40,212 bases of DNA from a virus (IMGVR_UViG_2541047498_000018), one strand, 5' to 3'; positions 377 to 29,762 are shown, counted from the stretch's first letter. Translations and numbers: made by a program. The notes: generated by a model not told the origin, from the sequence alone.

Positions 377-490
377 TGCCGTTTCCCTGAGTGAGGGAAT
401 CATTCAGCTTTCGTTCCCGAAAAACACACATTTATTTGTTATTTAAGGAGTTATCTCATGAAAACCGTTTCTCAGAATATATAGCGCGGC

Positions 491-562
491 GATTTTTTTG
501 ATACCGATTTGCATTTCATTTGATACCGCTGAAAAACGCCGATACGCAACTTATTTGATACT
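491..562. repeat. Right-end (attR-side) transposase-binding repeat array, three closely spaced TTTGATAC(C/T) sites
   Basis: TTGATACC at 498-505, TCATTTGATACC at 516-527, TTATTTGATACT at 551-562. The same motif occurs inverted at the other prophage end. Tight clustering resembles Mu R1-R3. Confidence 0.6.
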
Positions 563-607
563 AAATCGGCGCTTTTCTTTTGAGTTTTAGAATGAGTTTT
601 TAAGCGC

Positions 608-1345
608 TCATTCACTCTCTTTCAAACCAGTTTTAACTGTTTGTGGTTTTGGGTAAGGCTGGACTTTGAATAGCTTTGTGTTGAGGCGTTTTCTGGCCCT
701 CTTGTTCAGAAACCGGATGTAACGAAACTGTCGGAACTTATGAACACTGGCTCTGTCAATATTAGCCCTCAGATGTTCACCTCGTTGTCCGCCTCGTTTA
801 ATGGCATTCCTGCAAATCTCGTGATACCACTCGCCATCAAGTTCATAGAATATTGATTCATGGCTGCCTACATAATCAAAATTGCTTGCCTGATACACGA
901 CACCAAGACAGCCACAACGCTCATCTGCAAACGACTGAACCCACTGTACCTGCGGATAAAGCTGCCTGATTAGCTTGAGCGCGTAACTGATTGCCCTTGA
1001 TTCGGAGTTTCTCGGCATACAGTCATGCAGCCATAGCCGGTTAAGCTCCATATATTCTCGGTTCTGCGTACCCGTTACGACGCGTGCACCACTGTTTGGG
1101 TTAAGGGCGTAACCCCATTGCATTACGCCAACAAGTTCCCGTTCTGAAAATATGCCCAGATGAAGGTAGGAGTTATTTACGAAACGGTGGCTGTAATGTT
1201 TATTGACGATGACCAGTCTGGCCAGCCAGCAACTTATTGTCTCAACCCGCAACTCACGGGAGCCATAACCAACGATATTGTCGTTATAGCGAATAAGTTC
1301 AGGCGTGCTGATGATTCGGGATGTGACTTGCTTTCTGTTCCCCAC
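608..1345 (-). CDS. mom: DNA modification protein Mom (adenine modification, antirestriction)
   Basis: 245-aa ORF as the last gene before the prophage end. Its 5' end overlaps the 3' end of the upstream Com-like zinc-finger gene, as in Mu. True start may be an internal codon. Confidence 0.8.
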
Positions 1346-1499
1346 GACAGGATTTCCTTGTGTATGTGGGGTGCTCTGTGGCGCTCGGAGATGTGATTTG
1401 ATTGAGGGTTTTACAGCGCGGACATTTTACTTCCAGATAACTGAAACTGGCCCGTGCCAGTAGCTTATTGCAGTGTCGGCACCGTATGTTTCGATACAT
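1299..1499 (-). CDS. com: Com, zinc-finger translational activator of mom
   Basis: Translation [14 protein letters not shown]...EVKCPRCK has the C4 zinc-finger pattern of Mu Com. ATG at 1499 is preceded by AGGAGG 9 nt upstream on the minus strand. The track ORF starts further upstream at a TTG at 1544. Confidence 0.85.
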
Positions 1500-1546
1500 G
1501 ACCGCATAACCTCCTGCTTTGTTGTTGATGCCTTTCTCATGCAATC

Positions 1547-1685
1547 GATCGACAAAAACGATCGATTCGATTTGTTTAATTGATACAACAAATAGATTGA
1601 AAAGTCATCAACAATGATTCAGGGAGGTGATTATTTACTTAAAGAAAACGAAGAGTTAGGTGGTGAAAACGATCATAAAATGATC
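1547..1685 (-). promoter_or_regulatory. Upstream regulatory region of com-mom with a cluster of four GATC (Dam) sites
   Basis: GATC at 1547-1550, 1560-1563, 1671-1674 and 1682-1685, within about 190 bp upstream of com. Mu Pmom is known to be controlled by Dam methylation of upstream GATC sites (OxyR binding) and by C protein. Confidence 0.5.
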
Positions 1686-1799: not shown

Positions 1800-2116
1800 C
1801 AATCTGTAAAAACTTGCATCAATGCTTTACTTCGAGCTCGTGGCGTATCCTATGATATTCCCCGGTCTCCTGTAAAGCAGAGATGCATAAAAAGGAGATC
1901 TTTATCATGGATGAAAGAGCCTGTTTGCCCTGCCTGTAAGACTCCCTTACAGCTCATCTATCGCCGTTCTCGATCTCAAAATGGCAAGACATACAAACCC
2001 AAAAATGCTTCCTGTTTCAGGATGCTGATATGTCCTGCCTGTTCTCCCAGGAGGGAAAATACACAAAACGTGCATTAACAAACTCACCCGGCAGGGAAAC
2101 CTGCCGGTCGGTATTG

Positions 2117-2362
2117 TTACATCATAGTACCGTCAGTTCCGGGCTGAACCGGCTCTGGTTGCTCTACGGGTTGAGGATCATTTTCCGTGCTGTTTTCAGC
2201 CGGAGAACGGCCAACCATTCGGGCCAGCACTTCATCAACATATGCGTCGATTTGTGCCTCAAAATCCTTGCGAACCTGCGCCTTCAGCACGCGGTTCACT
2301 TCTTCAGAATAAAGTGCCTGTTTGACAAGCTCTTCAGTAACCGTGCCTTTAATCTCTGGCAT
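2117..2362 (-). CDS. Hypothetical protein (81 aa, acidic, Pro/Glu-rich C-terminus), cargo module
   Basis: ORF co-oriented with and downstream of the esterase gene. No family recognised. Confidence 0.4.
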   Translation of the reverse strand: MPEIKGTVTEELVKQALYSEEVNRVLKAQVRKDFEAQIDAYVDEVLARMVGRSPAENSTENDPQPVEQPEPVQPGTDGTMM

Positions 2363-2397
2363 GAATATTCTCCTTTTGCAGGTATATTGCCCCGTTA

Positions 2398-2580
2398 TCA
2401 GAGCGGGGTCGGGTCGTTTGGGGATGACGGTGCCTGTGCTGTTTTACTGAGTTTTTCAGCTGCCGCATCATCAATTTTACGGCGAATATAATTTCTGATG
2501 ACCTTATAACCACCGCTCACCAGATATAACGCACTGACCACAGCGCAGAAATAAAGCAGCATTGTATGAACGAATGTCAT
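2398..2580 (-). CDS. Hypothetical small membrane protein (60 aa), cargo module
   Basis: N-terminal hydrophobic segment LLYFCAVVSALYLVSGGY followed by a basic stretch. Co-oriented within the cargo module. Confidence 0.4.
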   Translation of the reverse strand: MTFVHTMLLYFCAVVSALYLVSGGYKVIRNYIRRKIDDAAAEKLSKTAQAPSSPNDPTPL

Positions 2581-2726
2581 ATAACCTTACCTTTGATATT
2601 GACTACATAATTCGTTATCGGGTAAAAACATCGAAGCGACTGATAACCACTCCTTCGGGAGTATTTTTATTTTCCTTTATGGGTTAGGTAGCTCCCGCCA
2701 GCCATATCATGACCGGCGGGATTTTT

Positions 2727-4766
2727 TTATTCTGTTACCGCTTTTTTCACTTCCACCACAATGCTGTCAATCAGCACCGGGTAAGTTGCATTTTTTGTGA
2801 TATCCGTTACGCGGAGTTTGTCCACCGGGAAAGTTCCTACTGGTGACTGCGTCAGGGTAAACGCGGCACCATCCTGACCATCAATAACCGGAATAACCTG
2901 AAGGCTGTTATTTCCTGCAAAACGGAAGGCCAGCGTATGCCATTCATTATCAAATGCACCAAAGGTTCCCAGTTTCTGGTTATTTGTTGCCACTTTTGCA
3001 TTGTGGTACATCACATTCAGGTCTTTTGCGTCTGTCTGGATGTAGAACGATGCCAGCAGATTATTCCCTGCATCCCCTGTCAGGGTGACACCCTGCGGCA
3101 GAGAGGAAACCGGCCAGTAAAGCCCCATGACATACTGGTTTGCCACCAGGTCGCCAGGTACTTTAAAACGACAACTGATTAAACCACCATTTTTCAGCAG
3201 TTCAGCACCAGTACCGGCATCATGATCCAGATACCAAGATGATTTACCTGTTTCCTTGGTCAGTTTCATTGCCTTACCACCTGTGCCTCCTGCATCACTG
3301 ATAATTTCAGCTTTACCGCCAGCCGGCTCCCAGCCCTGGGCTTTCAGATTTCCTTCTGACTCACTGACACGATAAGACAGCAGTGTTGTGGTTACTGCTT
3401 CAGTTTCTGAAGGTGACGGCACTGGTGCTTCAGTTTCAGAAGATGGAACATCGGCTTTTACTGTGGTTCGCCCCGCATGAGTCAGAACTGCCGTGGCCAG
3501 ACGGTCGGAAATAATCCCACGACGTGCCCATGAACTGAAATGGCTGGCCCGGTCCGCAGATGTCCAGGTGGCGGCACTGTTACGCCACGTTGAGCCGTAA
3601 TAACCAATGGATTCAATATCCGGGTCTTCTGCCGGATTGTTGGTGGGTACATTCGCGTCATTTTCATCTGTCATTAATGGAACGAAATGAATGTTTTTAT
3701 CTGTTTTGTTTTTGTAGCCGCCATAGATTGCCTGGTATGCCGGTTCATTTTTCTGTTTCCAGAAATACGTGGTATCGCCACAAATCCACGGAACGCCAGC
3801 AGCACTGCCACCGGTACACTGTTCCGCCTGTTCAGCCAGGTCTGCGCGGAATTTTTCCACCATCGCCAGAAACAGCGCGGAATGCTCCGTCGGCTTCGCA
3901 TCAATATCAAACTCGCCCTGCATCCACACCACAGCAAGCAGGCGGTTTTTCGGGTTCTTCGCCAGTGCCGCTTTTGTCCGGCTGATTAAGTCCTTATACA
4001 GCGGCTTATCCACACCCCAGCGGGCTGAGTCCTCTGAAGCACCCGTGCTGTCACTGTACGTGCCGTCAGCACCCGCCGTGAATGCAGAACCACCACGGCA
4101 GCAGGGAACCAGCAGAATCCCCGCATCTGCCGGAATAAACGGCAGCAGTTTTTTGGCAATGTGAAGCCCCTGACCCACGGTGCCATATTGCCCTTTAGCC
4201 ACATCCGCTTTCGGGTGATTTTTTCCACTCATATCCTGCACATCATGCAGACAGTGGTCGGCCAGAATGATGTCGTTATACTGACAGGCTTTACCTCCCG
4301 GCGTGACTGTACTGCGACGGGCTAACTGCATAATACGCGGTTCGGGGCGGTCATATGTCTCCGGCAGTGGCAGACCTTCACCGTAAGCCATACCGTTTGA
4401 CTGACCAGCAAGAACCACCACGTAATACCAGGAAGGGGAGCTGGAAGCAGTTTCATTTCCTGACGGACGGGTATGTGTTTCAGCATTATCCCAGTCTGAC
4501 GGTTCAGCAGTACCGGCAACATCAGCACTTAACGGAATGACCGCACCAATACCCGCTCCGGTAATTTCCACACTCGGATCACCGGATACTGGCCTTACCC
4601 ACAGGCAATCCCGTGTATTAAAACTGATGAGACAGTCAGCAAATGTCATTCCTCCTTTTGTTTCGGCCGGAGGAAAGGGAGCCTCAAGAAATGCCGCTGT
4701 ACCACCGGAAACTTTAACAGTAAAGTTTCCGGGCATTGATGATAGTTGAACCCATTTGGACGTCAT
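2727..4766 (-). CDS. SASA/SGNH-family carbohydrate O-acetylesterase (NanS-p-like sialate O-acetylesterase) with C-terminal lectin-like domain
   Basis: 679-aa ORF with VVVLAGQSNGMAYGEG (the GQSN nucleophile motif of SASA esterases), a Ser/Thr/Pro/Glu-rich linker (SETEAPVPSPSETEA) and a roughly 250-aa C-terminal domain. This three-part layout matches prophage NanS-p esterases as recalled. Confidence 0.75.
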   Translation of the reverse strand: MTSKWVQLSSMPGNFTVKVSGGTAAFLEAPFPPAETKGGMTFADCLISFNTRDCLWVRPVSGDPSVEITGAGIGAVIPLSADVAGTAEPSDWDNAETHTRPSGNETASSSPSWYYVVVLAGQSNGMAYGEGLPLPETYDRPEPRIMQLARRSTVTPGGKACQYNDIILADHCLHDVQDMSGKNHPKADVAKGQYGTVGQGLHIAKKLLPFIPADAGILLVPCCRGGSAFTAGADGTYSDSTGASEDSARWGVDKPLYKDLISRTKAALAKNPKNRLLAVVWMQGEFDIDAKPTEHSALFLAMVEKFRADLAEQAEQCTGGSAAGVPWICGDTTYFWKQKNEPAYQAIYGGYKNKTDKNIHFVPLMTDENDANVPTNNPAEDPDIESIGYYGSTWRNSAATWTSADRASHFSSWARRGIISDRLATAVLTHAGRTTVKADVPSSETEAPVPSPSETEAVTTTLLSYRVSESEGNLKAQGWEPAGGKAEIISDAGGTGGKAMKLTKETGKSSWYLDHDAGTGAELLKNGGLISCRFKVPGDLVANQYVMGLYWPVSSLPQGVTLTGDAGNNLLASFYIQTDAKDLNVMYHNAKVATNNQKLGTFGAFDNEWHTLAFRFAGNNSLQVIPVIDGQDGAAFTLTQSPVGTFPVDKLRVTDITKNATYPVLIDSIVVEVKKAVTE

Positions 4767-4865
4767 AATAATCAGCCTGTTCCTGAATAAACTGAATTAT
4801 CATATCCACAGACCGATAAACGCCATTTTGCGTTAATTCAGTAAAGGCCCAACAAAGGGAGCGTC

Positions 4866-5426
4866 TTATTTTTCCGAAACGCTCGCAGGATAATAACGAT
4901 AAAGGGTTGAAAGGCCGATATCAAAAATAAGTGCCACCTGTCTTCGACTGACACCCCCGGCCAGTAAACGCCCGACCTGCTCGTATTGTTCCTGCGTGAG
5001 ACGACGGGGTCTGCCGCCGGTTCGTCCCCTTTCACGGGCAGCTGCAAGACCAGCCCGTGTCCGTTCGACAATTAATTCACGCTCCATTTCTGCCAGCGCA
5101 CCCATTATGTGAAAAAAGAAGCGCCCCATGGGGGTTGACGTATCAATGTTGTCAGTAAGACTACGAAAATTTATCCCCTGTTGCTGTAATTCATCTGTCA
5201 GCGCAACAAGGTGGCGCATACTGCGCCCCAGCCTGTCCAGTTTCCAGACCATCAGTGTGTCACCGGGTTTTAGTTTCTTCAGTGCCCGCTTCAGTCCCGG
5301 CCGCTGTGTCGTTTTACCACTCATTTTATCTTCAAAAATCTGCTCACATCCTGCACATTCCAGCGCATTTCTTTGTAAACCTGTGTTCTGGTCATTTGTT
5401 GATACGCGTATATAGCCAATCAGCAT
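4866..5426 (-). CDS. gin: Gin serine DNA invertase (Hin/Gin/Cin/Pin resolvase-invertase family)
   Basis: 186 aa starting MLIGYIRVSTNDQ (catalytic Ser) with the conserved DRLGRS and GRFFFH...ALAEMERE motifs and a C-terminal HTH. It lies next to a gix-like site and the invertible segment. Confidence 0.95.
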   Translation of the reverse strand: MLIGYIRVSTNDQNTGLQRNALECAGCEQIFEDKMSGKTTQRPGLKRALKKLKPGDTLMVWKLDRLGRSMRHLVALTDELQQQGINFRSLTDNIDTSTPMGRFFFHIMGALAEMERELIVERTRAGLAAARERGRTGGRPRRLTQEQYEQVGRLLAGGVSRRQVALIFDIGLSTLYRYYPASVSEK

Positions 5427-5480
5427 GTATTTACCTTCCTTAAAAAGAGGTGGAAAGGCCTTTTAAAGCAGATATACGGC

Positions 5481-5506
5481 ATCCCTGAAACCTCGGTTTA
5501 CGGGAT
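5481..5506. other. gix-like recombination site (left border of invertible segment)
   Basis: 26-bp imperfect palindrome ATCCCTGAAACC-TC-GGTTTACGGGAT, 55 bp upstream of the gin start. It resembles the Mu gix/hix family sequence as recalled. Confidence 0.7.
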
Positions 5507-5851
5507 ACTGTAAACAGGGCCGCGAATGCCCTGCCATCGAACGGAGCGGCTGTTGCAGCGAATAAACTCGCCACTCCAAGAAATATTAATGGTGTCCCAT
5601 TTGACGGAACGCAGGATATAAATATTACATCGGGGATGACGCAGTCTGTGGCTGACTCACGTTATGTTCAAAGCATTCGAAGAGGTTCAAGGTCAACGAT
5701 TGGAATGCAATATAATATTTTTGAGGTTCCTGACGGATGCGTACTTACAGGGCTTGATGTCGCTGGTGATGGTAATGCAACGGTAACCGCATATTATCGA
5801 CCTGTTCAGTTTCTGATAGATGGTTCGTGGAAAACAGCTTCCAGCGCATAA
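5501..5851 (+). CDS. Start-less alternative tail-fibre variable C-terminal cassette (S'v-like), expressed only after inversion
   Basis: Open frame directly inside the left gix site on the plus strand. It is homologous to the C-terminal part of S and has no start codon of its own upstream (TGA at 5486 in frame). Confidence 0.7.
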   Translation, partial: RDTVNRAANALPSNGAAVAANKLATPRNINGVPFDGTQDINITSGMTQSVADSRYVQSIRRGSRSTIGMQYNIFEVPDGCVLTGLDVAGDGNATVTAYYRPVQFLIDGSWKTASSA

Positions 5852-11189: not shown

Positions 11190-12543
11190 TAATCACCTCC
11201 ACTGAATGGCCTCCGGGAATGAACAGCGGATCAACAATACCGTTACGGCGCACAAAACGTTGCCAGCCGGTACTGTTCCCGGTGGCACGGTACAGGGTCA
11301 CCAGTGCAGGCTCGGTGGTACGTACAGTCACTACTGTTGCACCGGGTAGCTGAACTCCCCGTGTATTCAGATCCTCTGTCAGTGCCAGTCTGGCATCACG
11401 AAGCGTCAGCGCCGTGGCGGTATACCCCTGCCCGGACAGTGTCATCACCTGCCGTTCGAGCGCTTCGCTTAAGTCACGGTTAATGCGCTGAAGATCAACT
11501 GAACTTTCCAGCCAGACAGGCCAGGTACGGTGGGCTGCGTCACTGTCCGGCAGGGTTTCCTGACTGAGAACCTGATCCAGCAGTTTTCCCACGGTCTGTG
11601 CCTGGGCCACCACGGCAGCACTCTGCATTACCGCCCGTATCAGACGAATATTCTTTTGTGCTGCCGGTGTCAGACCGATGAGAGTCTGCGGATTATCCTG
11701 CTCATCCAGCACGTAACGCAGGGAAGATAATGTCCTGTACAGTTGCGGCATTCCCTGAGAGAAGGCGGATGTCGTCCGGCCGATACTGCCACCGGGCCGG
11801 GTATTCAGGCCTCCTGAAGACAGTGACGGCAGCGATGGCAGGGTGATCAGGGCACTGAAAAGCCCCGCAAAAGATGAGGCCATGCGGGAAGGTGCTGTCA
11901 GTAATGCCGTGGCATTCCCTTTCAGCGCCGTGAACGTGGCAGTAAAGGCACTGATATCCTGTACAATCCCCATGCCGGAAACGGCATTTTCCAGGGCGGA
12001 CACCTTATCGCTGATGGTTTCGGTCATTGCCTGGACATCGTGCATTCCGTCAGAAATCACCGTCCAGCCCGCTTCCAGGGTTTCAAAAACCTTCCCGAGC
12101 GCGGTGGTACTCTTCTGCTCCAGAATGGCGGCCGTGTCCTGTGTGACAGCAGGTGCGGTATCATCACTTACCGGCGTGACATTAATGGTGAACTCAACCA
12201 CGCCCTGTTCAGCAGCGTTATAACGACTTTCAAAGCTGTTTATCAGCACATTTAACGTGCCGTAATCCGGGTGAAGCAGCTCCCCGGCACCGGGAGCACG
12301 AAGGGCATCACGCAGACGATTTCGCTGTGTCTGAACATCATCCCCCATCACAAGTACACTGAACGTAAATTCAGCCAGTTTAGGTCCCAGATCGTCTGCA
12401 CCACCGGTTTCCCGTAACGGATATTCCCGACGGACAATGTTTCGCCCGCCACGTTCGCGCTGCTCACGCCAGACGAGGAACGGCACACCACGGAACGCAC
12501 CACGACCGTCACCAGAGGCCATAATTCCCTCCGTTCCAGACAT
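11173..12543 (-). CDS. DNA circularisation protein N-like (Mu gp43-like)
   Basis: 456-aa ORF directly after the tape measure gene. N-terminal FRGVPFLV motif as recalled for the Mu N family. Confidence 0.65.
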   Translation of the reverse strand: MSGTEGIMASGDGRGAFRGVPFLVWREQRERGGRNIVRREYPLRETGGADDLGPKLAEFTFSVLVMGDDVQTQRNRLRDALRAPGAGELLHPDYGTLNVLINSFESRYNAAEQGVVEFTINVTPVSDDTAPAVTQDTAAILEQKSTTALGKVFETLEAGWTVISDGMHDVQAMTETISDKVSALENAVSGMGIVQDISAFTATFTALKGNATALLTAPSRMASSFAGLFSALITLPSLPSLSSGGLNTRPGGSIGRTTSAFSQGMPQLYRTLSSLRYVLDEQDNPQTLIGLTPAAQKNIRLIRAVMQSAAVVAQAQTVGKLLDQVLSQETLPDSDAAHRTWPVWLESSVDLQRINRDLSEALERQVMTLSGQGYTATALTLRDARLALTEDLNTRGVQLPGATVVTVRTTEPALVTLYRATGNSTGWQRFVRRNGIVDPLFIPGGHSVEVISEQQG

Positions 12544-20783: not shown

Positions 20784-20959
20784 TCCGGCAGCATAAGCCG
20801 GGAATTTTCAGGGCGGGTTTTGCGGGATTTCAGGAAGTGCTTCCAGGGGAAAAATACAAAGGCGCTTCACGCAGATTTTAAAGCCCGTTAAATACAGGTT
20901 AGAAAATCACGACACGCGCCTGAAGGGGGTAAGGTAATGCATTTGCATACCTTAAACAA

Positions 20960-21433: not shown

Positions 21434-21554
21434 ATTGCCTCCGCATAAAGGATGAATATAAAATAAACAGGCGGTCAGTGTACGCTTAACTGGTAAAGTC
21501 GGTGCCTGCCTCCGGGTGGATCATGTATGCGGGTTCAACCCCCGCCACTGACCG

Positions 21555-22886
21555 TTAATCAATATCTCCTTCCAGTACCTCAAGCATTCCACCCCGGATA
21601 TCCGATTTCAGCTTATCCATATTGATAACCCGGTAAGCATTCACAATCACATCCAGTTTATCCGGCTGACGCTTCAGGCTGTACGGCGCATTAACGGCAA
21701 TCTGCACACTGCTATCCTTACTTTCCACGATATACATCAGATTGTTGTGGCGTTTGTCCCACAGCACCGCTTTTGGCTTTGCCAGCATTGCCGGTAATCG
21801 ACCGAAATCCTCCGGCGTCAGGGCGATACCGTCATTCTGATGTTTCATGCTGTCCGCATGGAGCACATTTTTACCGCTCATCGCCAGCAGGCGGGCCGGT
21901 GGCGTTCCCGTCCGGCTTTCCACCGCCTGCGCAATGCTTTCGGTCATAAAGCCCAGCGTGCGGATATCGTTACCGCCTCGCCGGGTTTTCATGATGTTTT
22001 TTGCCCAGATGCGGAACGCCAGCTGCCGCTCCGGGCTGTTGTTCATCTCCTGCACTACCATTTCCCGCAGCGCCGGGCTTTTCACCTCGATCAGTTTACG
22101 GATCAACGCCTGGTCTGTGCCGAACGCCGCCGAGCCGGGGTTATATGACCAGCCCACATCCGGTGTCATGGTTCTGGTGCCATCTGAATATGTGGTCACC
22201 GGCATTTCTCTGACTTCTCCGGTCTGCTTATCCACGCCAGCCTCAACATTGCGGGTGGAAAGATGATCCTGACCGGATGAAACGGATAACCCCATTGCAT
22301 CCAGACGGGTCTGAGACAATGGCCGGACACGGCAGCGGCAGTTCCAGCCATTGGGTGGGTAGTGTGTATTCCAGAACGGATCGTCATAGCGGAATACCTG
22401 CCCGTTAAGGGCGGAATGCGCCGGGCGGGTGCGGCTGTCCATCACCGCCACATACTGCCAGAACGGATGCGTGTCCGTGTTGTTCATCATCTGCGTGTAA
22501 CGCCCGGCATTGTAAGCCACGCGGGTGTTCACGTTGTAAATCAGCGCCAGACGGCGGGGACTGCCCAGTTGCACTTCTTCTGCGTTACCGGCGCTGTCCA
22601 CCACAATCTGCTTTCCCCACCATCCCAGCTTTTGCAGGCGGGGTGTCAGTGTGCGGATAAATGCTTTCTGTGAAATCCCCTCATCAACAGCACGCTGCAC
22701 TTCCGCCTGTAGTGTGGTCAGTACGTCCAGGCGTGCCACTTTTGCCGCCGTGAATGAACGGGCATGAACATCCGCGTCTGTTTCGAACCAGTTCCAGCTG
22801 ATATGCGCCCCTTTGGCGCGGAAGTATGCCACCGCCTCTTTTGAGGGAAGCGTGGCGGCATAACCTAAATCAATCCCCTGTGCCAT
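21555..22886 (-). CDS. Phage Mu F-like head morphogenesis protein
   Basis: 443-aa ORF downstream of the portal gene, with a GWNCRCRV motif characteristic of the Mu F-like family. Confidence 0.8.
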   Translation of the reverse strand: MAQGIDLGYAATLPSKEAVAYFRAKGAHISWNWFETDADVHARSFTAAKVARLDVLTTLQAEVQRAVDEGISQKAFIRTLTPRLQKLGWWGKQIVVDSAGNAEEVQLGSPRRLALIYNVNTRVAYNAGRYTQMMNNTDTHPFWQYVAVMDSRTRPAHSALNGQVFRYDDPFWNTHYPPNGWNCRCRVRPLSQTRLDAMGLSVSSGQDHLSTRNVEAGVDKQTGEVREMPVTTYSDGTRTMTPDVGWSYNPGSAAFGTDQALIRKLIEVKSPALREMVVQEMNNSPERQLAFRIWAKNIMKTRRGGNDIRTLGFMTESIAQAVESRTGTPPARLLAMSGKNVLHADSMKHQNDGIALTPEDFGRLPAMLAKPKAVLWDKRHNNLMYIVESKDSSVQIAVNAPYSLKRQPDKLDVIVNAYRVINMDKLKSDIRGGMLEVLEGDID

Positions 22887-28686: not shown

Positions 28687-28757
28687 TGTTACGCTGTCTC
28701 ATGATGTTCTCTGAGTCAGCGTAACGGTGAAGGAGAGGCGGCAGGCTTTGCGGAATA

Positions 28758-29183
28758 TCAGAAAAGTGGCGGTTGCGTTCTTACCAGATGCAGACGGCGC
28801 TGTTCGCGTATGACGGTATAAATCTGGGTTTCTGACATCCGGTAATGGCGGCGAAGGGATTCAATTTTCTCGCCCCGGTCCCAGCGCGAAAATATCTCAT
28901 TGTTTCGCAGCTCGGCAAAGAGAGATTCCCCGACCGGCAGGTAATAACCCCGTCCGCCCATATAGGCGGCCTGAGCCGCAGCCACCTTGCGTGCCAGTTT
29001 ACCGGCCAGTACCGGCTCAATCCCCTGACGCTGAAGTTCTGCGCCGGTGACTTCAACCAGTTCTGACAGGGTCCGCGGCCAGTTCTTTTTGAGAACATCA
29101 TCAGGGATGTCATCAAGGCGGTCGATAAGGGCGTGCAGTTGCTCACTGTCACCACCAAACATGCTCATCTGAGTTTCTGCCAT
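28758..29183 (-). CDS. mor: Mor/C-family transcription activator (middle/late gene activator)
   Basis: 141 aa with YMGGRGYYLPVG and a C-terminal HTH (MSETQIYTVIREQRR), matching the Mor/C family as recalled. Located between the GemA-like gene and the lysis genes. Confidence 0.7.
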   Translation of the reverse strand: MAETQMSMFGGDSEQLHALIDRLDDIPDDVLKKNWPRTLSELVEVTGAELQRQGIEPVLAGKLARKVAAAQAAYMGGRGYYLPVGESLFAELRNNEIFSRWDRGEKIESLRRHYRMSETQIYTVIREQRRLHLVRTQPPLF

Positions 29184-29252
29184 ATCAGCCTCCGGTTCTC
29201 GCGTTCCCGGTAAGTTTAAAATAAAAATCCCGCGTTGTGGCGGGATTTGGAG

Positions 29253-29762
29253 TTAACGGGGAAGTGATTTTTCATACTGCCTGCAAACGGCGTCATACCC
29301 CATCAGCGTGCGTTCGGGCATTCCCATCGCGGCCAGCATTTTGCGGCGGTGCCATCGCTTGAGACGCTCCAGCACATCTGAGGCCAGGGCGGGGTGTTGC
29401 TCCAGCCACTGCCAGTTTGCCACACCTTCGCCGCCGTTCTGCGCGGCCGTCTGCGATTTCACCCAGCGGTTAAGGGCGGTTTCCGCACCATCGGTGATAA
29501 AGCCCTGCCGGTGCATCACCTTCCAGATGGCGCGAATTTTGGCGGTCACCGTACCCGGTTTTAAGGCCCGGTTAACCGGGTTCTGACGCACTTTAAAACC
29601 GCGTTTTTTGAAAACATCCAGCACGCGGGATAACTCATCCGGTGACATATCCCGGCAGCTGGTTTTGCCGGTAGCTGCCAGCAGCGCGGATGTATAAGTC
29701 TCATCATCCAGGGCAAGCTCGCGCTTTGCCACATGAATGGCGGATATCAGTTTTCCTCTCAT
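29253..29762 (-). CDS. GemA-like regulatory protein (Mu gp16-like, DUF1018-like)
   Basis: 169-aa ORF directly upstream of the Mor/C-family gene, the position of gemA in Mu. Confidence 0.5.
   Translation of the reverse strand: MRGKLISAIHVAKRELALDDETYTSALLAATGKTSCRDMSPDELSRVLDVFKKRGFKVRQNPVNRALKPGTVTAKIRAIWKVMHRQGFITDGAETALNRWVKSQTAAQNGGEGVANWQWLEQHPALASDVLERLKRWHRRKMLAAMGMPERTLMGYDAVCRQYEKSLPR

Follow-up and report, generated by a model that had tools for sequence, protein, structure and literature searches.

The feature at positions 608-1685 of the window, the window being the entire 40,212-nt stretch of viral DNA that was analysed (IMGVR_UViG_2541047498_000018), is a Mu-type com-mom anti-restriction module in which, as far as can be read from the DNA, the genes and their translational control match those of Mu, while the promoter region is a variant. 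Compared with the textbook wiring of Mu, two instead of three Dam sites are present, there is no C-box, the late promoter appears to have been relocated, and a hypervariable patch has taken up the place of the presumed core promoter. The Mu paradigm of a C-activated Pmom is not transferable to this lineage. The gene pair itself is nothing new, the com-mom module being an already known and RefSeq-annotated system, and adenine hypermodification of the Mom type is one of the classic ways in which phages counter host defences; with mom present, this widespread STEC/EHEC-associated Mu-like prophage could shield its DNA from many restriction systems while spreading.

The mom gene (608-1345, minus strand) was delimited from the open reading frame and from profile matches; it begins with GTG and encodes a Mom-family adenine N6 hypermodification enzyme of 245 aa. 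A profile search for the acyltransferase-like core found it present, the protein matching the Pfam family Mom (PF25680) with an E-value of 4e-77 over profile positions 1-202 of 202. Further matches are to crystallised Mu Mom (PDB 8bv8; E 4.5e-124) and to phrog_1384, and the alignment with Mu Mom, at 79% identity, has no internal gaps beyond two N-terminal residues. Through this alignment the residue numbering of PMC13219725, which is that of the 231-aa Mu sequence plus 10, was mapped onto the window protein: the residues equivalent to W48, H58, Y59, R111, S124, D149, R151, Y159 and W181 are all identical, including the four described as essential or catalytic (R111, S124, D149 and R151; PMC13219725), and the HTH-like insertion around residues 175-209 is free of gaps. 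Mom is a GNAT-fold enzyme that moves glycine from Gly-tRNA(Gly) to the N6 of adenine in double-stranded DNA (Silva et al., 2026, PMC13219725), the product rearranging on the base to N6-carbamoylmethyl-dA (PMC13219725), and it is therefore a Gly-tRNA(Gly)-dependent adenine aminoacyltransferase, not an acetyl-CoA acyltransferase. By its full-length profile and structure-sequence matches the Mom of this module is assigned to this family of tRNA(Gly)-dependent adenine aminoacyltransferases. Going by homology, it would transfer glycine from Gly-tRNA(Gly) to the N6 of adenine in the double-stranded phage DNA, and the product would rearrange to N6-carbamoylmethyl-adenine, blocking many restriction enzymes.

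The com gene (1299-1499, minus strand) starts with ATG, preceded by 10 nt by a ribosome-binding site AGGAGG (1510-1515, minus strand; read from the sequence), and encodes a Com zinc-ribbon translational activator of 66 aa. Com matches PF10122 (Zn_ribbon_Com; E 1.9e-12) and phrog_13819 and is 47% identical to Mu Com, with an N-terminal CCCC zinc ribbon in which Cys7, Cys10, Cys26 and Cys29 align with Cys6, 9, 26 and 29 of the Mu protein. The reading as a Mu-type com-mom anti-restriction module, which had been proposed from the sequence alone in the original prediction, is borne out by this match together with those of Mom to PF25680, 8bv8 and Mu Mom. The predicted overlap of the zinc-finger gene with the 5' end of mom by about 47 nt was likewise found, on the minus strand, to be 47 nt (1299-1345), compared with 50 nt in Mu.

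Within and just upstream of this overlap lie the elements through which mom would be controlled by Com. The mom GTG (1345-1343) forms the first three bases of GUGGGG (1345-1340), the 3' arm of a translation-inhibition hairpin (1340-1371, minus strand) that pairs in the MFE fold with CCCCAC (1371-1366), and the loop, itself partly paired, contains the Shine-Dalgarno sequence of mom, AAGGA (1359-1355). Four sequences from three lineages, including Mu (where the GTG start is likewise held in a CCCAC/GUGGG hairpin), a P2-like cassette and a cargo-swapped copy, preserve the stem with one compensatory change from C-G to U-A, and the hairpin persists even where the cargo gene has been exchanged. A further small hairpin 5' of the inhibitory one is weakly predicted by the MFE fold, with 2 bp. 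A motif match places a predicted Com-binding RNA element, GAGCGCCACAGAGCACC, at 1370-1386 of the minus strand, with the core CC-ACA-GAG at 1381-1374. The Com target defined by SELEX is 5'-CC(N)2-3GAG-3', with the bipartite form NGAGNNCC(N)2-3GAGNNCC (PMC6483171), and GAGCGCCACAGAGCACC fits the full bipartite motif. The core recurs at the equivalent place as CC-UGC-GAG in Mu and as CC-AUC-GAG in the P2-like cassette, and the arrangement CC-N3-GAG-CA-(C/U)CCCAC is common to all three. The anatomy for a Com-dependent opening of the inhibitory hairpin is complete, and from it we infer the function: the GUG start and the Shine-Dalgarno sequence of mom would be locked in the hairpin, Com would be translated first from the same mRNA, and its predicted role, like that of Mu Com, is to attach to the neighbouring CC-N3-GAG element and so unfold the hairpin. 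The proposal of a Mu-like arrangement for translational activation is upheld in that both the hairpin sequestering the GTG and the Com-binding motif are conserved.

Upstream of com, the four GATC sites of the original prediction (1547-1550, 1560-1563, 1671-1674 and 1682-1685) are confirmed, with the first two 13 bp apart; a fifth lies at 1717-1720, and positions 1-1546 contain none. Five sites in 175 bp make up the densest cluster of the window, and an equal cluster arises in about 20% of uniform random re-placements of the window's 126 GATC sites (P about 0.2), so that density was discarded as evidence. The argument for Dam control rests instead on homology, and it holds for 1547/1560, which correspond to Mu sites, but not for 1671/1682, which are situated in unrelated DNA.

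The proximal pair, unique in the window in its exact 13-bp spacing, is contained in a perfect palindrome, AATCGATCG-N7-CGATCGATT (1543-1567, minus strand), which has 9-bp arms and was recognised by homology and motif as a Dam/OxyR-type element. Pair and flanks are homologous to GATC sites II and III of Mu in an alignment with Mu and D108, and they share with these the 13-bp spacing and the pattern CGATCG-N8-GATCGATT. This pattern has 137 matches in IMG/VR, 42 of which are followed by a Com ORF, and the Com ORFs belong to three diverged lineages, beginning with MKSIRC (Mu type), MYRNIRC (the window) and MTQNVRC (P2-like prophages). The element is also nearly the same as that of agn43 (flu), where the OxyR/Dam switch of E. 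coli K-12 is identical to the core ATCGATCGTTTnTnTCGATCGAT at 21 of 23 positions and likewise holds two GATC sites 13 bp apart. In the gtr operons of Salmonella and P22, GATC pairs with 13-bp spacing each occupy one OxyR dimer half-site; one of the pairs overlaps the promoter some 33 bp ahead of the start, and OxyR no longer binds once the sites are methylated (PMC2909390). Homology thus gives good support to the prediction that OxyR binds at 1567-1543 in a Dam-sensitive manner: the GATC-GATC palindrome would serve as an OxyR half-site that is occupied in the unmethylated state alone, and Dam methylation would be permissive for com-mom, as at Mu Pmom and agn43. Scoring of half-sites against ATAGnTnnnAnCTAT was uninformative alone, matches of 7/10 being common in the AT-rich DNA of this region (ten in 280 bp), and the agn43 and Mu homology was used in its place.

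The element nevertheless lacks a part that its relatives have. Mu, agn43 and the P2-like cassette all own an upstream ATAG...GATC-I half-site, whereas in the window lineage GATC site I and the ATAG half-site of Mu are absent and unrelated sequence is found there. Just one OxyR half-site is intact in the window, half of the usual tetramer site, and OxyR binding may be weak. The agn43 switch differs further by a third GATC and by belonging to a host gene whose transcript starts at the site or before it, and gtr has two pairs in three half-sites and undergoes ON/OFF phase variation, in contrast to the single pair of the window, whose sequence gives no indication of phase variation of com-mom.

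The distance from this element to com does not accommodate the promoter of Mu. From the G of GATC III to the com ATG there are 51 nt here versus 78 nt in Mu, which is 27 nt shorter. In Mu the interval accommodates the box to which C binds (GATTATGCCCCAATAACC; C binds at about -28 to -57), a poor -35 with a 19-bp spacer, a T-run, the -10 sequence TAAGAT and a 21-nt leader; with 51 nt, a Mu-type layout would therefore place the transcription start inside com. The T-run and TAAGAT are absent from the com upstream region of the window, and a consensus sigma-70 promoter was not found on the com strand between 1770 and 1500. In the P2-like cassette, which has the same 65-nt geometry from the motif to the ATG, an extended -10, TGTTATCAT, follows directly after GATCGATT. 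At this very position the window carries a hypervariable patch (1528-1542, minus strand), which, from the comparison of alleles and the P2-like -10 position, is presumed to be a weak core promoter. Among 33 copies the patch occurs in seven alleles, for example GCATGAGAAAGGC, GAGTGATAAAGAT, TGGTGAGAAAGAT and TGATGAAGCAAAC (with 6 extra nt), and the flanks are invariant. Several alleles read AAAGAT, near TAAGAT of Mu, where the window allele, the commonest (14/33 copies), has AAAGGC, lacking the T at -7; a consensus -10 is absent from this allele. A dyad or RNA hairpin in the patch (TTGATG...CATCAA) fits alleles a, d and e and misfits b and c. Co-variation of the patch with the C protein was considered and rejected, the C-box being identical in a lineage with a different patch.

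The most likely origin of com-mom transcripts is a weak promoter around 1540-1530, just downstream of the palindrome, from which synthesis would begin near 1523-1528; the OxyR half-site would then overlap its -35 and spacer. A promoter between 1770 and 1500 is argued for because a strong terminator-like hairpin lies at 1800-1771. This predicted fold (1761-1800 with its tail, minus strand) has 13 bp, -21.5 kcal/mol and a z-score of -6.2, is followed by the U-rich UUUCACUUUUAU, and, being terminator-like, would insulate com-mom from upstream transcription.

The late promoters elsewhere in the prophage bear on two other accounts. The single Mor/C-family activator gene of the prophage, compared with two in Mu, is directly upstream of the lysozyme gene (28758-29183, minus strand; PF08765, E 1.2e-31), and its C-like product shows 39% identity to the C protein of Mu and 27% to Mor. 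The target of this activator is likely the 21-nt box TGAWATYCCGCAAARCCYGCC, with TAYGCT 16 nt later, which is homologous to Mu Plys and has two exact copies in the window, one ahead of lys (Plys) and one ahead of the I-protease gene (PI), the next best match having 6 mismatches; it is conserved at Plys of a phage of the L007 sister lineage, whose C is 83% identical. By box homology, a late promoter candidate of the C-box type, TGAATTAACGCAAAA-N21-TATGAT (4796-4840, minus strand), follows directly after gin, and the L007 lineage keeps this box as TGAATTTCCGCAAAA. The candidate promoter has the position of Mu Pmom and would drive DUF6645-DUF1378-DUF826, of which DUF6645 is a SASA-esterase-domain protein; com lies 3.3 kb further downstream, behind two hairpins. 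The second of these (2077-2107, minus strand), just past the DUF826 stop, is GC-rich with a predicted 8-bp stem and -18 kcal/mol, and is terminator-like on both strands. In Mu, gin is adjacent to com and ends in ...ATCAATTAA; the real gin of the window (4866-5426) ends differently, and what remains next to com is a 9-nt remnant of a Mu-type gin comprising its final codons and stop, ATCAATTAA (1576-1584, minus strand; alignment with Mu), separated from gin by the 3.3 kb of extra genes and the two hairpins.

From this layout com-mom could be promoterless, forming the attenuated tail of a late operon whose start is the post-gin C-box promoter (4840-4796). All the genes from DUF6645 to mom are on one strand, the promoter is conserved in two lineages at the place of Mu Pmom, the scan near com returned no good promoter, and read-through would supply late timing. 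We nevertheless regard this as unlikely: two terminator-like hairpins intervene, one of them very stable and with a U-rich tail, a conserved Dam/OxyR element would make little sense 3.3 kb into an operon, and the P2-like cassette of the same geometry has its own extended -10.

Quite improbable is the promoter that the original prediction implied, in which, as at Pmom, the stretch from the GATC sites to com would hold a poor promoter with a Mor/C-family activator bound immediately upstream of it. The prophage does encode a C-like activator, and by eye GGCATCAACAAC retains in the alignment a residual likeness to the Mu box CCAATAACCAC. Against this, the box that is exact at Plys and PI and kept in the sister lineage is missing upstream of com, where nothing rises above background in 1500-1800 (5 of 13 mismatches at best), the shortened interval would put the start inside com, and the patch varies independently of C, the sister lineage having the same C-box. 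The C-box of Pmom is unconserved in the window, its spacing is incompatible, and the implied Mu-style promoter directly upstream of com is not supported. Two candidates for its parts were also set aside: AATAATCAC (1635-1627), which matches the Mu C-box CATAAYCCC and resembles AATAACCAC of Mu Pmom, is attributed to chance, being unconserved in L007 and wrongly spaced, and TATGCG (1508-1503), read as a late-type -10 (cf. TAYGCT), would start transcription inside com and is missing a C-box 30 nt upstream.

A promoter further upstream, near the distal GATC sites, is less probable still. The sites at 1671, 1682 and 1717 (1671-1720) stand beside weak -10-like hexamers on both strands, and the best such hexamers on the com strand, TAAAAT (1691-1686) and TATGAT (1677-1672), abut or overlap GATC 1682 and 1671. 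If transcription began there, the GATC palindrome might act as an OxyR roadblock in the leader, as at agn43, where the homologous OxyR site is downstream of the annotated transcript start. However, a usable -35 is missing for both hexamers, and the distal sites, which have no homology to the Mu control region, are inside a plus-strand ORF (1614-2078) that matches phrog_26524 and is frameshifted in another copy. In the L007 lineage, where the com-mom cassette is the same, their DNA has been exchanged or has diverged strongly, and by this comparison the distal sites are outside the conserved control element. Just as improbable is a decayed allele, in which leaky, toxic expression of mom in lysogens would have selected for an inactive core promoter. 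The hypervariable patch at the expected -10, the C of the window against T elsewhere at the presumptive -7 and the cytotoxicity of Mom (PMC3378877) might suggest it, but virtually every copy has com and mom intact, the allele of the window is the most frequent and the prophage is apparently complete and mobile.

The weak promoter at about 1540-1530 leaves the timing of expression to be explained by other means. No recognisable C-box lies by com and the third GATC of Mu is missing, and therefore late timing must come from something else, for which an unrecognised activator site, or leakage through the terminators from the post-gin C-box promoter, would be candidates.

The module lies in a window that is almost entirely a single Mu-like transposable prophage on the minus strand, very probably one of the Sp18 type from E. 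coli, with com-mom 130 bp inside its right end. Mu-like phages including Sp18 encode, in the equivalent place, proteins homologous to Mom and to its regulators (PMC3299994), and the window shows the gene order of Mu with mom at the right end, as in Mu and D108, its copies standing at varied host sites. A comparison of junctions from three independent insertions sets the right end at window position 478; the terminal stretch (478-607, minus strand) holds repeated TTTGATAC(C) motifs resembling transposase sites, and the DNA of positions 1-478 belongs to a host island and contains a DUF932 gene. In an identical copy of the prophage in E. coli 2313 (L001), the annotation comprises a Mu-type head, tail and baseplate, an invertible tail-fibre segment, a Gin-type recombinase and the terminal genes "Com family" and "protein mom". 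PGAP calls the same two CDS in this copy, and its names in identical copies are "Com family" and either "protein mom" or "tRNA(Gly)-dependent adenine aminoacyltransferase Mom".

At least 80% of positions 400-2200 recurs, at 99% identity or more, in about 200 complete E. coli genomes, in which the module is already annotated, and 395 E. coli records match 1290-1810. Some 2000 partial E. coli matches probably stem from the host-island flank (window 400-478), outside the com-mom module, because Mu-like inserts are all that 1600-2720 finds in the phage collection and just those 395 records match 1290-1810. Copies are inserted at many unrelated host positions, among them torS, dcuC, ydcF, dacD and Stx phages, the copies inside Stx-converting phages being annotated as "inserted Bacteriophage Mu-like phage"; from these many different sites it follows that the element was recently active, and the prophage looks complete and mobile. 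Rfam gave no family match, ARAGORN reported zero tRNAs, and a scan of genome contigs with a lineage-specific pattern found no match.

Across these copies and their relatives, the cargo behind com is not constant. In some Sp18-type copies a C5-cytosine methyltransferase of 350 aa (PF00145) replaces mom behind the same com, hairpin and GATC element, with the point of exchange right behind codon 5, where the hairpin ends. P2-like prophages of E. coli have the order Hok-Com-N6/N4 methyltransferase. Com-led DNA methyltransferases have been described before in FluMu (Hin1523), Pnm1 (Nme1821) and B3 (ORF47/48; PMC3299994). As in the window, the Com zinc ribbon in such cassettes overlaps the 5' end of a DNA-modification gene, which in contrast to mom is a methyltransferase, and the E. 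coli examples have the same hairpin and GATC element as the window, so that the exchange of cargo extends a known theme. Tentatively, and with a good deal of doubt, com, the hairpin and the GATC palindrome may together form, in the Sp18-type Mu-like and the P2-like prophages of E. coli, a portable, C-box-free "short-form" control cassette with Mom, C5-cytosine and N6/N4 methyltransferases as its interchangeable cargos. If so, control would be exerted via the Dam/OxyR half-site and a patch of core promoter that diversifies quickly (7 alleles), and the C-dependent Pmom of Mu would be derived, an elaboration and not the general case. That one com cassette carries alternative modification enzymes is in itself a detail of regulation and modularity of modest interest.

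Com-led cassettes carry different DNA-modification genes. In five copies of the window's prophage type (L008, with the cassette at 4302-5508, as well as L002, L050, L071 and L142) mom is replaced by a gene for a 350-aa C5-cytosine DNA methyltransferase (PF00145). These copies keep the same com gene, the inhibitory hairpin and the GATC palindrome, and their divergence from the mom copies begins directly past codon 5 of the cargo gene. A further cassette, encoding Hok/Gef, Com and an N6/N4 DNA methyltransferase, lies in a P2-like prophage of E. coli 2014C-3075 (L009, 2598-3921), and was also found in many IMG/VR contigs. The P2-like cassette carries the complete GATC triad, including the same 13-bp pair, and has an extended -10 (TGTTATCAT) immediately 3' of GATCGATT.

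At the presumptive com-mom -10 lies a hypervariable patch of ~13-15 nt (1528-1542, minus strand), for which seven alleles were found among 33 copies with invariant flanks, one of them bearing a 6-nt CAACAA expansion. No co-variation was seen between the patch alleles and the C activator. The variability may reflect selection acting on leakage from a toxic gene, or the presence of a dyad or hairpin (TTGATG...CATCAA).

Divergent from com, a putative plus-strand ORF of 154 aa (1614-2078) matches phrog_26524 over residues 1-104 and has a zinc-ribbon-like CPAC...CPAC within its C-terminal 55 aa. A sigma-70-like TTGACT-16-TAGGAT is located on the same strand at 1692-1719, with a GATC overlapping the -10. 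The ORF lacks an SD, carries a frameshift in L008 and may not be a real gene. Between gin and com, a minus-strand stretch (2117-4766) carries three genes that Mu lacks, for a 679-aa protein with SASA (sialate O-acetylesterase) and DUF6645 domains, a DUF1378 protein and a DUF826 protein. In lambdoid Stx phages, these families are typical of the stretch that follows stx. At the DNA level, the only matches of 2117-4766 in the phage collection are Mu-like inserts.

The sole Mor/C-family activator of the prophage is encoded directly between GemA and lysozyme (region 28758-29762, minus strand), with a terminator-like hairpin just upstream of its gene; compared with Mu, a separate Mor gene and the middle operon appear to be missing. 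Candidate C-activator boxes of the pattern TGAWATYCCGCAAARCCYGCC-N16-TAYGCT, at 28740-28760, 20812-20832 and 4796-4840 on the minus strand, mark late promoters that precede lysozyme and the I protease and follow gin, respectively. A weaker candidate, GATAATCCGCAGA (11685-11697, minus strand), possibly lies inside the N-like gene, where PP is located in Mu. In the identical prophage copy L001, PGAP annotates a 'tRNA-OTHER' (41022-41102, corresponding to ~21496-21576 of the window) flanked by the genes for the F-like and G-like head proteins; ARAGORN found no tRNA or tmRNA in the entire window.

The prophage is flanked at 1-478 by DNA of another mobile island, in which a DUF932-family gene has its 3' end next to the insertion. 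A comparison of three insertions (the window, L001 and the sister lineage L007) showed different DNA just beyond the prophage end every time.
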